Below are positions 3,318 to 6,443 of a stretch of 64,000 nt of DNA, piece after piece. The stretch covers positions 3,210 through 67,209 of the forward strand of contig CAIQPS010000029.1 of the NCBI GenBank assembly GCA_903873715.1, written 5' to 3'. A program made the position numbers and the translations under genes. Within the stretch, counting starts at the first letter, position 1, and every line of letters starts with the position of its first letter. Under the pieces are notes generated by a model, which worked only from the letters and a program-made list of their open reading frames with translations, had not been told where the DNA came from and ran no database searches. This DNA is from an uncultured Actinomycetes bacterium. GTDB lineage: Bacteria > Actinomycetota > Thermoleophilia > RBG-16-64-13.

Positions 3318-3321
<4 letters not shown>

Positions 3322-6300
3322 GCGCGCCCAAACAGAAGGCCGCAGCTGCGGCTGCGCCGGCGGCGGCCGTGTCCGTCAACATCAACGGCAAGTGGTTCGA
3401 CGCGCAGAAGGGCGAGACCGTCCTCGACGTCGCCCGCCGGGAAGGCATCGACATCCCGGCCCTGTGCAGCCTGGAAGGCACGGCTGCCTGGGGTGGCTGC
3501 CGCCTCTGCCTCGTCGAGGTCGACGGGGTGGACAAACTGCAGGCCGCCTGCACCACCTGGGCCGCCGAGGGGCTCACCGTCCAGACCGAGACCCCGCGGG
3601 TCCGCGCCCGCCGCGAGAGCTACCTGCGGATGTACCTGTCCGACCACAACTCCTACTGCGAAGCCCCGTGCACGCACGCCTGCCCGACGCACGTGGACAT
3701 CCCGGCCTACATGGCCGCCCTGGCGGAAGGCGACGCGCCCGGCGCGGCGGCCATCGTCCGCGACGAACTGCCCTTCCCGGGCATCCTGGCCCGGGTGTGC
3801 CCCCGCTACTGCGAGCCTGTCTGCCGCCGGGGCGCGGTCGACGAGCCCATCGCCATCTGCGACCTGCACCGGGCGGCGGCCGATCACTCCACCGCCCGCC
3901 TCAACCGGGGCATGTCCACCGGCAAGCGGGTAGCCGTCGTCGGCGCCGGCCCGGCGGGTCTCGCCGCGGCCTGGTTCCTCACGGCGCGCGGCCACCAGGT
4001 GACCGTCTACGACTCCGAGGCGCAGCCCGGCGGATCGCTCCGCTATCTGGTGCCCGAGTTCCGGTTGCCGGCCTCCGTGCTCGACGCCGATCTGGCTCCT
4101 CTGTGGCAGGCCGGCGCCCGCTTCGTGGGAGGCTCGCAGATGCACTACGACACCGACCCGCAGGTGCTGTTCGAGGCCGGCTTCGATGCGGTCGTGATAG
4201 GCACCGGCTCGAAGGCCAAGACCGCCAAGAAGCCTGCGGCGAAGCACACGCTCGACGCATATGAGTTCCTGCGCGGCCGGCGCGACGGCAGCGGCAAGCC
4301 GCTCTCCGGCAAGGTGGTCGTCGTGGGTGGCGGCATCAGCGCCGTCGACGCAGCCAGGACCGCTCTGCGCTCGGGCGCCGAAGCGGTGACCGTCGTGTCC
4401 CGCTACGAGGCGGACGCCATGCCCGCCGGTGCCCGCGATGTCGCTGCCGCCCGGGAAGAGGGCGTCTCCTTCGAGTTCGGCGCGTCCGCCGACCGGGTGG
4501 CCGCCGCCTCCGCGGCGCCTGCGGCCGGCAAGGCGACCGTCATCATCGCCGCCGAGAACGGCGTCGGGACTTCCGGGACCATCAAGGTAGCCGGCGAGAA
4601 CGTCACCCCCAACCGCTTCACCGGCCGCACCGCATACACCGGCCTCTTCGTGGCAGGCGACGCGCTCGGCGGCGCCAAGTCGGCCATCCACGCGGTGGCG
4701 AGCGGCAAACGGGCGGCATTGGCAGTCGACGCCTGGCTCCGTGGCGAGGACCTTGCCACCCTCGAGCAGATGCTGGCCGATCACGCGAGGCTGCCCTATC
4801 TCGAGCAGCTCAAACAGGATGAGGCGCTCGGCGCGACCGCGAAGCGGCTGGCCGAGCGCGACCCGGTGTGGCTCGCCATGGGGGCCGGCGCCGAGCCGAA
4901 GGCTCGCGCCGCGATGCCCAGATTGTCCAAAGCCAAACGGCTGTCCGGCCCCAACATGGAGGTCGAGCAGGGCTACTCCCTGGCCGCGGCCGAGGCCGAG
5001 GCCAAGCGCTGCCTGCGGTGCACCTGCCCCAGCCTGGGCGAGTGCGACCTTCAGCGCCTCGGCGTGGAGTACGGCGTGACCAGCAACGCCCTCGTCAAGA
5101 AGGGCAGCCGGGTCCGCGTGGTCCAGCCCCAGACGGAACACCCGTTCATCCGCCGCGACATGGAGCGCTGCATAGCCTGCGGCCGCTGCGTGCGGATCTG
5201 CCGCGACGTGGCCGGTCCGGCCTGCTACGACTTCACCGGGCGAGGCTTCACCATCAACGTCGACACGCCGTATGGAGAAGCCCTCCAGTTGGCCGACTGC
5301 ATCAGTTGCGGCCGCTGCGTGACCTCGTGCCCCACCGGCGCCCTGCTCTTCAACGAGCGCCGGCTCGACTCGTTCAAAGTGGACGAGAGCCGCTGCATCA
5401 TGTGCCGCGAGTGCGTCAACGTCTGCCCGGTCGACGGACTCGAAGAGACCGACACGTTCGAGCGCGCCCGGCAGGATTGGCTGCAGTTGATCGCCAAGGG
5501 CAGCGGCTTGGCAGGCGGGCACCGCATGTGCGCCGGCTGTGGCGCGCCGATCGTCGTGCGCCAGGTCCTCATGGGCACGAGCGACCCCGTCGTGGTGGCG
5601 GCGGCCACGGGCTGCCTCGAGGTGAGCACCACCATCTACCCGTACACCTCGTGGAAGAACAGCTTCATCCACACGGCTTTCGAGAACTCGGCAGCCACAC
5701 TCTCCGGCGTGGAGACGGCGTTCCGGGCCCTGAAGAAGCAGGGCAAGATCGATGAGAACGTGAAGTTCATCGCCTTCGGAGGCGACGGCGGGACCTACGA
5801 CATCGGGTTGCAGTCGCTGTCGGGCGCCATGGAGCGCGGGCACAAGATGCTGTACGTCTGCTACGACAACGGCGCCTACATGAACACCGGCTTCCAGAGA
5901 TCCGGTTCGACGCCCATCGGCGCATGGACCACGACGACCCCGATCGGCCACGAGTCGCACGGGAAGTCCCAGTTCCGCAAGAACCTCACCGAACTCATGA
6001 TCGCCCACGGCATCCGCTACGTGGCCCAGGCGTCCCCGCACGATCCCCGGGACCTGGTGCGCAAGGCGGCGAAGGCGCTGTCCATCGACGGTCCGACCTT
6101 CCTCAACGTCATCGCCCCCTGTCCGCGCGGCTGGCGGGCCGACGGCGCGGAGAGCGTCGACCTGGCCAGGGAGGCGGTCAACACGTGCTACTGGCCCCTG
6201 TTCGAGTACGAGGACGGCGTCTACCGCCTCACCTTCCGCCCGCACCACAAACTTCCGCTCGCCCCTTGGCTCAGGCGCCAGGGCCGCTTCGCACACCTGT

Positions 6301-6443
6301 TCCAGCCCGAGAACGCGGCGACGCTCGAGGTGCTCGAGGGCAAGGTCGACCAGGCCTGGGAAAGGCTGCTCAAGAAGTGCGGCGAACCCAGCGAAGCCGA
6401 GTGGCAGGCCCATCTTCAGGAGAATGGCTGTCTGCTACGATAG
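3318..6443 (+). CDS. 1041-aa multidomain fusion: NuoG-type N-terminal 2Fe-2S ferredoxin + GltD/NfnB-like NAD(P)H:FAD oxidoreductase (two Rossmann folds, Cys clusters) + polyferredoxin (3 CxxCxxCxxxC motifs) + PFOR beta subunit (TPP-binding, PorB)
   Basis: GTG at 3318 preceded by GGAAGGAGG with a 5-nt spacer, overlapping the previous stop (GTGA). Domains recognised: CSLEG..CRLCLV; YCEAPCTHACP / CPRYCEPVCRRG; VAVVGAGPAGLAAA and VVVVGGGISAVDAA; CIACGRCVRIC, CISCGRCVTSCP, CIMCRECVNVCP; GHRMCAGCGAP and GDGGTYDIG...NGAYMNTGFQ (TPP motif). The frame is open from 3318 to 6443. Confidence 0.8.

Follow-up and report, generated by a model that had tools for sequence, protein, structure and literature searches.

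The por-bfu operon and the bfuA::porB gene

The DNA analysed here, called the window below, is a 64,000 bp stretch (positions 3,210 to 67,209) of contig CAIQPS010000029.1, assembly GCA_903873715.1, from an uncultured actinobacterium of the Thermoleophilia. It opens within an operon in which genes for a pyruvate:ferredoxin oxidoreductase (POR) stand next to genes of the Bfu family. The gene that concerns us most, bfuA::porB (positions 3318..6443, plus strand), encodes a single protein of 1041 amino acids (aa) and 111.3 kDa in which a BfuA of the NfnA/StnC type, the C-terminal half of a NuoI-type domain and PorB follow one another. The frame runs without interruption for 1041 codons to a TAG stop at 6441-6443. 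Its GTG start at 3318 overlaps the TGA (3319-3321) of the preceding NuoF-like gene in the sequence GTGA (3318-3321), and a Shine-Dalgarno sequence read from the DNA, GGAAGGAGG (3304..3312, plus strand), lies 5 nt before it. An initial annotation of the locus, made from the letters alone, had described one unbroken frame with this start, this ribosome binding site and a product of about 112 kDa, and the translation agrees on all of these points.

The genes upstream of the fusion are on the same strand. Positions 1..522 are the 3'-part of porA, cut by the start of the window; they encode domain II of the POR alpha subunit (PFOR_II, E 2.6e-32, with matches to the PorA NCBIfam models), and this part is 88% identical to residues 228-400 of the full-length PorA of a related locus, L002. 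Gene bfuC (545..1414) encodes a NuoE/NfnC-like [2Fe-2S] subunit with an N-terminal extension (2Fe-2S_thioredx at aa 148-280, E 7e-43), whose best solved relatives are Csac NfnC, its Stn counterpart and Tsib NfnC. Gene bfuB (1411..3321) encodes a NuoF-like FMN/NADH subunit with Complex1_51K, NADH_4Fe-4S, 2Fe-2S_thioredx and Fer4 matches; it has in addition an N-terminal thioredoxin-like [2Fe-2S] domain (aa 28-103) and a C-terminal domain for two [4Fe-4S] clusters (two Fer4 matches, aa 569-620), and its cysteines are at 34, 39, 71, 75, 482-488, 528, 558, 563, 576-586 and 606-616. BfuB matches the bifurcating HydB, NfnB and StnB proteins over its full length (E 5e-232 to 2e-207), whereas the non-bifurcating NuoF and FdsB match only aa ~127-557. 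The set of genes that characterizes the Bfu family is thus present: BfuC, BfuA, and a BfuB that has, besides the B1 [4Fe-4S] site and the His/Cys site, a [2Fe-2S]-type domain at its N-terminus and a dicluster at its C-terminus. The initial annotation had named PorA, NuoE and NuoF as partners to model together with the fusion protein but had missed that, to judge from these homologies, the two NuoE/NuoF-like neighbours are a complete BfuC/BfuB core of the bifurcating type, which would add an FMN/NADH site and a ferredoxin-type arm.

An independent gene caller found the same operon genes, with stops and starts overlapping. The gene order porG-porD-porA-bfuC-bfuB-fusion is found in all of the ~20 related Actinomycetota loci that have sufficient flanking sequence, often preceded by dnaX-ybaB-recR, and a canonical two-motif porD lies between porG and porA in every one of the ~20 that have upstream flank. 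The porG and porD genes of the present operon are taken from these relatives, since the window begins inside porA and porD lies off its 5' end. In ordinary bacteria in the same scan porG-porD-porA-porB are contiguous, and so the position of the three-gene module is precisely the junction of porA and porB.

Some of the relatives carry further features. One 3.56-Mb contig (ERZ25039495 contig_18476) has two complete six-gene copies, L080 and L081, one beside genes for rubrerythrin and dihydroxy-acid dehydratase (IlvD) and the other beside genes for GAPDH and an Ldh_2-family protein; the two copies may differ in 2-oxoacid specificity or in regulation. In GCA_040769125.1 a gene about 5 kb 3' of the por-bfu operon (L085, 15357-17186) encodes a product of at least 1478 aa with repeated Fer4_20 and Pyr_redox_2 domains. 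The locus in the closest genome, L023, is 84% identical to the present one and has frameshifts typical of a nanopore-derived metagenome-assembled genome (MAG), for which it was excluded from work on gene boundaries; frameshift-like breaks in conserved operon genes are seen in L023, L018 and L012, all MFD MAG contigs, and are probably homopolymer errors of long-read assemblies.

The fusion gene is real and intact, and is neither a chance frame nor an assembly artefact. Broken frames within the operon in those three nanopore-derived loci might suggest a pseudogene, or two separate genes joined by a frameshift or by faulty assembly, but this is extremely improbable. An identical 1041-aa protein (P0001) is recorded at NCBI and ENA on two contigs from different sources, one of them a 4.9 kb contig that carries no upstream genes, and 107 full-length clusters from NCBI, ENA, JGI and Logan, 60-82% identical to the fusion, have the same architecture. 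In this family the junction segment (aa 681-725) has a mean identity of 0.70 and a constant length, and all 33 cluster-ligand cysteines are invariant in at least 106 of the 107 relatives. Neither of the outcomes that the initial annotation had named as fatal to its description is seen: no break separates the GltD-like and PorB-like parts, and alignment to solved relatives finds the cluster cysteines and the thiamine pyrophosphate (TPP) motif kept rather than degenerate. Clustering at 50% identity leaves a single representative for the full architecture, so the clade is narrow, though it is common in soil and peat metagenomes. An antisense open reading frame of 1065 aa (3216..6413, minus strand) spans nearly the whole gene and has no Pfam match. 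The DNA of the window is 67-72% GC, long spurious frames are expected for that reason, and this one is best explained as a high-GC artefact; the sense frame, unlike it, matches solved proteins at E <1e-100. In public records the gene goes under the names "FAD-dependent oxidoreductase", "formate dehydrogenase major subunit" and "pyruvate ferredoxin oxidoreductase beta subunit".

Domain organization of the fusion protein

The domain inventory given in the initial annotation (a NuoG-style [2Fe-2S] domain, a GltD-like flavoprotein, three ferredoxin motifs and PorB) is borne out by Pfam and NCBIfam. The protein begins with a NuoG/HydA-type [2Fe-2S] domain (3363..3593; Fer2_4 at aa 16-92, E 5.5e-17), whose ligands C50, C61, C64 and C78 are present in all 107 relatives. 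It is followed by a GltD/NfnL-type di-cluster domain (3657..3893; Fer4_20 at aa 114-192, E 2.6e-16) with C114, C118, C122, C161, C165 and C169, plus C181 and H184; the six former residues align to C100, C104, C108, C147, C151 and C155 of Csac NfnA, the ligands of its clusters A6 and A7. The flavin adenine dinucleotide (FAD) and NAD(P)H Rossmann domains come next (3927..4706; Pyr_redox_2 at aa 204-463, E 8e-18), with GAGPAG at aa 209, GGGISAVD at aa 337 and, near aa 446, a GD motif. In the relatives the FAD motifs are invariant, and the GxGxxAxD motif is retained, with G337 in 107/107 and D344 in 106/107. The NCBIfam model PRK12814 covers aa 17-389 (E 5e-129).

Beyond the flavoprotein is a NuoG N5-like [4Fe-4S] motif, C565-x2-C568-x-C570-x5-C576 (5010..5045), which aligns to the CxxCxCx5C of NfnA and StnC and is invariant among the relatives. 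Three C-x2-C-x2-C-x3-C motifs, called motifs 1 to 3 here, then stand at aa 618-628, 661-671 and 693-703. Motifs 1 and 2, plus C636, belong to a NuoG/HydA-type ferredoxin-like domain with two [4Fe-4S] clusters (5142..5345; Fer4_Nqo3 at aa 609-676, E 1.7e-9), and motif 3 (C693, C696, C699, C703) belongs to the C-terminal half of a NuoI-type domain (5352..5498; NuoI TIGR01971).

The remainder is PorB, the TPP-binding beta subunit (5490..6371; NF008819 at aa 725-1018, E 7e-106; TPP_enzyme_C of Pfam at aa 764-931, E 1.9e-19). The TPP motif GDG-x(26)-N (G822-D823-G824...N851) is kept and is invariant in the relatives, as are C738, C741, C766 and C935 of the proximal cluster, which were aligned to those of 9bt4_C, 5c4i_C and 1b0p_A. 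The PorB part matches 9bt4_C, the Methanosarcina acetivorans PFOR beta subunit, with E 2e-78 and a Foldseek TM of 0.79, and also matches 5c4i_C. Among NCBIfam models it scores best with the PorB model NF008819, at 354 bits and so below the cut-off of 405, and reaches 291 with VorB, 242 with oxalate oxidoreductase and 232 with PadI.

The N-terminal ~680 aa of the fusion are, by homology, a BfuA like those of the NfnABC and Stn transhydrogenases. The best solved relatives of aa 17-680 are Caldicellulosiruptor NfnA (9bov_A, E 9e-114), Sporomusa StnC (8oh5_C, E 8e-106) and Thermococcus NfnA (9n5u_A, E 1e-99), and the alignment to 9bov_A and 8oh5_C spans aa 18-390 and 433-680. A Foldseek search with an AlphaFold2 monomer model, built on a 120-sequence alignment (mean predicted local distance difference test score, pLDDT, 75.7; mostly >90 over the Rossmann domains), again ranked NfnA and StnC chains first. 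The features that mark a BfuA, namely Fer2_4, Fer4_Nqo3 and the CxxCxCx5C motif with invariant ligands, are all present. The tandem folds had been described initially as of the GltD/NfnB type, which is right as to domain content but left the NfnA/StnC identity of the whole unrecognised.

The likeness to NfnA and StnC goes further than the presence of domains. The known enzymes (9BOV/9BP5, 8OH5 and 9N5U) also consist of three subunits of the NuoE, NuoF and NuoG types, and their largest subunit has the same order of parts: the [2Fe-2S] domain, an inserted GltD/NfnL flavoprotein with two [4Fe-4S] clusters, the CxxCxCx5C cluster and the dicluster ferredoxin-like domain. The arginine that hydrogen-bonds N5 of FAD in StnC, R239, aligns to R249 of the fusion. 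There are also clear differences. The vestigial formate dehydrogenase (Fdh)/molybdopterin domain that mediates tetramer formation in NfnA and StnC is replaced by the NuoI half and PorB; a Pfam and NCBIfam scan found no molybdopterin domain in the fusion, in which PorB follows from aa 725. The lysine ligand of the FAD-proximal cluster is here His184, with Cys181 nearby, and the YRR sequence discussed below is absent. BfuC has an extra N-terminal half-NuoI domain, and por genes are part of the operon. The lysine (K170) is strictly conserved in StnC and functionally important, being needed for activity (PMC10482914), and the clusters that lead toward the C-terminal domain of the NfnABC and Stn enzymes are considered a non-functional dead-end branch, a vestige of formate dehydrogenase (PMC11829005, PMC10482914). 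In its sequence, then, the fusion lacks two features by which the Nfn-type Bfu and Stn enzymes are defined, the lysine ligand and the Fdh domain.

A NuoI-type domain divided between BfuC and the fusion protein

Motifs 1 and 2 of the fusion use all eight of their cysteines and are the NuoG/HydA-type pair common to NfnA and StnC. The cysteines of motif 3 are invariant as well, but this motif has no partner in the fusion chain, which does not carry the two CxxCxxCxxxCP motifs of a NuoI/TYKY protein. The region of motif 3 matches positions 69-117 of TIGR01971 (E 1.6e-11) and also the NuoI/TYKY chains 8qby_I and 7a23_D. The missing half is encoded at the module's other end: the conserved N-terminal extension of BfuC, ~140 aa long, contains the N-terminal half of a NuoI (TYKY)-type domain for two [4Fe-4S] clusters (578..802; TIGR01971 positions 34-63), with one CxxCxxCxxxCP motif at nt 743-775 (aa 67-78, including C67, C70 and C73). 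This NuoI half is kept in all related loci.

The same conclusion comes from a group of orphan PorB paralogues, here called PorB', in Thermoleophilia (L027, 9839-11314, and L028-L034), in which both NuoI pieces are contiguous and precede PorB. With a profile of this contiguous domain, BfuC aa 12-84 match positions 4-72 (44 bits) and fusion aa 682-746 match positions 87-151 (62 bits), and the first half of the profile has no significant match anywhere in the fusion. The BfuC extension is 47% identical to that of L027 (E 6e-11). BfuC and the fusion protein thus carry complementary halves of one two-cluster domain, and the most economical reading is that the halves reassemble, by which BfuC would be clamped to the fusion at its PorB end. 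A BLAST comparison with L027 suggested a single ferredoxin domain made of motifs 2 and 3. We rejected this reading: motif 1 is already the partner of motif 2, as in NfnA; BfuC aligns with the first half of the PorB' profile; and motifs 1 and 2 match the second half only weakly and generically.

In the initial annotation the three ferredoxin motifs stood in for PorD. That assignment falls, given the canonical porD in every relative with upstream sequence, the NuoG/HydA-type nature of motifs 1 and 2, and the identity of motif 3 as a NuoI half. The intramolecular wire that it drew from TPP to the flavin fares better as a path, which is plausible, than as a property of one chain, because the partner of the NuoI half is on BfuC and a second polypeptide is probably needed.

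Two side observations belong here. BfuC has three more cysteines, C87, C113 and C119 (nt 803-903, in YCPEF and SCGAxSAC), that are conserved in por-linked BfuC proteins and fall in an alignment gap in the complex I paralogue described below; most relatives have a fourth, in CPVDC, which the protein of the window lacks. The three may form an extra metal site. The PorB' proteins are PadI-like, and no porA, porG or porD lies within 10 kb of their genes in L027-L034; in L027 the PorB' gene is followed by a DUF3786 gene, and a GltD-like gene lies ~3-9 kb off in L027, L028, L030, L031 and L034.

A paralogous module in complex I operons

A search with representatives at 50% identity found an 816-aa protein, P0124, that is 43% identical to the fusion over aa 6-724 and has the same architecture up to the NuoI half, without PorB. 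Its gene lies in complex I operons of Thermoleophilia-type MAGs (L082, 2466-13432; L083; L084, 2565-17336) with the order nuoA-B-C-D-H, a NuoI N-half::NuoE gene, a NuoF gene with extra cluster domains, a gene for NuoG with a GltD-like insert fused to the NuoI C-half (P0124), and nuoJ-K-L-M-N. These operons have no separate nuoI gene; complex I needs a working NuoI, and therefore the split halves would have to come together in them. The three-gene cassette is thus common to both operons, but in complex I it lies between nuoABCDH and nuoJKLMN and stops after the NuoI half, whereas here porGDA precede it and it runs on into PorB. The partner in the present case is a TPP enzyme in place of the quinone module, and the direction of electron flow is likely reversed.

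The complex I cassette family has >120 clusters, and those whose source is named are from Thermoleophilia or Actinobacteria. Both operons, that for complex I and that with the por genes, occur in GCA_040769125.1, a single 1.84-Mb contig, and the paralogues within it are 41% identical in the G-like part, 57% in F and 39% in E. These relationships indicate that the por-linked module, with its connector, is paralogous to the NADH module of complex I in the same lineage. No description of the split NuoI of the complex I operon was found in the literature searched.

Relationship to other 2-oxoacid oxidoreductases

For Dehalococcoides and syntrophic Proteobacteria, Schut et al. 2022 (PMC9304861) predicted a Por-Bfu enzyme from the neighbourhood of the genes. 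As in the present operon, por and bfuABC genes are clustered there, and in both systems pyruvate would be the "third substrate" of a predicted Bfu enzyme. The published version has seven separate subunits and a minimal BfuA (PMC9304861). The present operon has six genes; its BfuA is joined to PorB and carries an Nfn-type flavoprotein insert, and a split NuoI domain would form a bridge. By its sequence the fusion has what defines both a Bfu-family gene and a porB gene, and it departs from the published Por-Bfu in that these subunits are not separate. For the Codh-Bfu cluster, which is analogous, Schut et al. 2022 explicitly asked whether it encodes one enzyme or two (PMC9304861). Actinomycetota are not among the Por-Bfu hosts in the text or supplement of that paper, and no paper that describes the fusion or a split NuoI was found in literature searches on Por-Bfu, PorB fusions, Thermoleophilia POR and split or fused NuoI. 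A paper on the Hakuba actinobacteria draws por, nuo and PF07992 in a neighbourhood figure, and its text is silent on their linkage.

A simpler fusion is found in a Caldilineae MAG of the Chloroflexota (L035, 47-2500; also P0127): a protein of 504 aa joins a NuoG-type [2Fe-2S] domain and a dicluster domain to PorB without a flavoprotein insert, and its gene is directly 3' of a BfuB-like gene. The fusion principle therefore recurs. We also considered a Nitrospirae locus (JdFR-85; L047, 753-11053) as an unfused Por-Bfu. It has genes for a prismane-family CODH, for BfuC and BfuB, for a small NuoF-C-terminal/ferredoxin protein and for a NuoG-like protein that carries a molybdopterin domain, directly followed by porG-porD-porA-porB. 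It was set aside as ambiguous on account of the CODH gene and the molybdopterin-type BfuA; the arrangement could be Codh-Bfu, Por-Bfu or both.

With the heterotetrameric PorABDG enzymes (such as M. acetivorans PFOR, 9BT4) and with oxalate oxidoreductase (5C4I) the TPP motif and the four proximal-cluster cysteines are shared, and the PorB part is 60-64% identical to PorB proteins from ordinary porGDAB operons. There PorB is a free subunit of ~300 aa, and here it is the C-terminal third of 1041 aa, with three extra genes between porA and porB. Phenylglyoxylate dehydrogenase is a 2-oxoacid oxidoreductase that, as reportedly described by Hirsch et al. in 1998, passes electrons to NAD+ via extra flavin and Fe-S subunits. 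In this enzyme (PadEFGHI of Azoarcus/Aromatoleum) the beta subunit likewise has an N-terminal NuoI-like dicluster extension; in PadI, as in PorB', the domain is contiguous, and here it is split by three genes. The PorB part does not reach the PadI equivalog model (232 bits, cut-off 700), and we know of no NuoEF-type module in Pad. In the pyruvate:NADP+ oxidoreductase (PNO) of Euglena and Cryptosporidium a POR is fused to a flavoprotein and pyruvate reduces pyridine nucleotide directly. That enzyme, unlike the present one, is a single-chain PFOR joined to a cytochrome-P450-reductase-type FMN/FAD domain, an unrelated flavoprotein, without NuoEFG or GltD parts; Pfam finds no flavodoxin or FAD_binding_1 domain in the fusion, whose flavoprotein is of the GltD type.

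Proposed function of the Por-Bfu complex

From the domain content, ligand conservation, operon structure and homologies, which were established directly, we infer complex formation, an electron path, bifurcation, nucleotide specificity and a 2-oxoacid substrate, as follows. On balance we favour, with a little better than even confidence, a six-gene Por-Bfu complex (porG, porD, porA, bfuC, bfuB, bfuA::porB) that has the fusion as its largest subunit and carries electrons from a 2-oxoacid to NAD(P)+. It would join a four-subunit-type pyruvate (2-oxoacid):ferredoxin oxidoreductase to a complex-I-like Bfu NADH-dehydrogenase module by two links. One would be covalent, with PorB at the C-terminus of the NuoG-like part, in the position of the vestigial formate dehydrogenase domain of NfnA and StnC; the other would be the NuoI-type two-cluster domain, split between the N-terminus of BfuC and the segment before PorB, which would reassemble. 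Electrons of TPP-bound pyruvate would enter the proximal [4Fe-4S] cluster of PorB and pass through the reassembled NuoI-like clusters to the NuoG-type clusters. From there one route could lead by the [2Fe-2S] cluster to the B1-FMN-C1 site of BfuB/BfuC, where NAD+ would be reduced and the C-terminal clusters of BfuB would serve ferredoxin, and another by the two GltD-type clusters to FAD. The net result would be a reversible pyruvate:NAD(P)+ oxidoreductase that probably reduces NAD+ and ferredoxin together, by analogy with characterized Bfu enzymes such as Wor-Bfu; this coupled reduction is our leading hypothesis. Pyruvate breakdown is then probably wired straight to NAD(P)H without free ferredoxin, and the best reading is of a hard-wired Por-Bfu that would link pyruvate to NAD(H), and possibly to NADP(H) and ferredoxin, with stoichiometry and bifurcation both predicted.

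Several observations weigh against this proposal. Conservation of the fusion is lowest in the NAD(P)H subdomain, which has a mean pairwise identity of 0.51 (0.25 in a variable insert), compared with 0.86 for the dicluster domain and 0.83 for PorB. The position of Lys170 at the FAD-proximal cluster is taken by His184 here and by histidine in at least 90% of the family, with Cys181, three residues before it, invariant. A YRR sequence after the second Rossmann strand, which we take, by an unpublished criterion of our own, to be the NADPH marker of GltD/NfnL proteins, is missing from the fusion, which has S-R-Y there (in the family (A/S/T)-x-(H/Y)), and is kept in the complex I paralogue P0317. 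The flavin site may thus not bind NADPH, or may serve only as a relay, and of the NAD(P)H flavoprotein that was initially proposed the GltD-type FAD domain stands while the usual signature for NADPH is absent. The model has a pLDDT of ~40 across aa 600-711 and is unreliable there for cluster-to-cluster distances. A canonical PorD is present in the relatives, so that the POR part could still use free ferredoxin. Finally, pyruvate at -500 mV can reduce both NAD+ and ferredoxin uncoupled, and bifurcation is not thermodynamically required.

Some of these points would suit a plain, non-bifurcating pyruvate:NAD+ oxidoreductase, in which the NuoEFG-like module runs in reverse as an NAD+ reductase, as in the NAD+-dependent formate dehydrogenases (FdsABG) and the Hox hydrogenases. 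The GltD-like flavin and the additional clusters of BfuB would then have a passive or regulatory role, and the enzyme would stand in, as an oxygen-sensitive counterpart, for the pyruvate dehydrogenase complex. The cassette has its paralogue in the complex I NADH module of the organism itself, pyruvate oxidation with NAD+ is exergonic and needs no coupling, and the loss of the NADPH signature, the replaced lysine ligand and the relaxed conservation of the NAD(P)H subdomain all fit. We nevertheless regard this alternative as unlikely, if a serious one: BfuB retains every feature by which bifurcating B subunits differ from NuoF and FdsB (the His/Cys site, the [2Fe-2S] domain at the N-terminus and the dicluster at the C-terminus), and all seven GltD-type cluster cysteines and the FAD motifs are invariant over 107 clusters, which speaks against a dead domain. 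The characterized Wor-Bfu bifurcates although its donor likewise has a very low potential (PMC9304861).

The complex might instead work in the reductive direction, as a pyruvate synthase in which acetyl-CoA is carboxylated with NAD(P)H electrons raised to low potential by bifurcation in the attached module. Pyruvate would then be available for anabolism or for CO2 assimilation, and no separate system for reducing ferredoxin would be needed. We think this rather improbable, although POR is reversible. PorB is tethered to the mid-potential NuoG-like arm and not to the low-potential C-terminal arm of BfuB, the GAPDH/Ldh_2 and IlvD/rubrerythrin genes that flank L080 and L081 are at least equally consistent with catabolism, and no autotrophy genes were seen in the annotated parts of the window. 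In its favour are the proposal by Schut et al. that Por-Bfu makes pyruvate from NADH and ferredoxin (PMC9304861), and the bifurcation of NADPH electrons by NfnABC to NAD+ and ferredoxin-level acceptors (PMC11829005). Far less probable still is the self-contained wire of the initial annotation, in which the three ferredoxin motifs of one chain replace PorD and lead from TPP to the GltD-type flavin. All the domains are indeed in one chain, but every relative with upstream sequence has a canonical porD, motifs 1 and 2 are the NuoG-type pair of NfnA and StnC, and motif 3 alone cannot complete two clusters when its missing half is on BfuC.

The preferred six-gene Por-Bfu complex allows a bolder extension, which we offer tentatively and think somewhat more apt to be wrong than right. 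In the abundant uncultured Thermoleophilia of soil and peat, the NADH module of complex I may be a portable plug with a split NuoI, one copy of which serves the membrane arm while a paralogue has been welded to POR as a hub with four sites, for pyruvate, NAD(H), NAD(P)(H) at the second flavin, and ferredoxin. If so, the hub would make reduced pyridine nucleotides directly from pyruvate, or pyruvate from them, by bifurcation or confurcation, and the covalent fusion would be the first direct evidence that Por-Bfu clusters encode one enzyme.

Other genes in the window

Four genes annotated downstream of the fusion (6449-13046) are housekeeping genes with no obvious functional link to the por-bfu operon. 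They encode a SAM-methyltransferase (6449-7072, plus strand), a small RF-1-domain, peptidyl-tRNA hydrolase-like protein (7146-7577, minus strand), a DUF4147/MOFRL glycerate-kinase-like protein (7338-8939, plus strand) and IMP dehydrogenase (11568-13046, plus strand). A translationally coupled haem biosynthesis operon follows at 14283-22621 (plus strand), with genes in the order radical SAM/SPASM protein, glutamyl-tRNA reductase, porphobilinogen deaminase, uroporphyrinogen-III synthase, ALA dehydratase, uroporphyrinogen decarboxylase and a HemY-like protein of the amine-oxidase family.

Conclusions

The Bfu enzymes are a recently recognised and widespread class of electron-bifurcating enzymes, of which Por-Bfu is a predicted member, and a BfuA::PorB fusion conserved in >100 clusters favours, for this lineage, one enzyme over two. 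The fusion suggests that the "dead-end" cluster branch of NfnA and StnC can carry a catalytic module, and the split NuoI suggests how an NADH-dehydrogenase module could move between complex I and a soluble oxidoreductase; the protein is also a natural construct for biochemistry and cryo-electron microscopy. These points are relevant to electron bifurcation, to the evolution of complex I and to anaerobic-type 2-oxoacid metabolism. The hosts are common uncultured Actinomycetota of soil and peat, for which the annotation of the step from pyruvate to acetyl-CoA, and of the NAD(P)H balance, would have to be revised.

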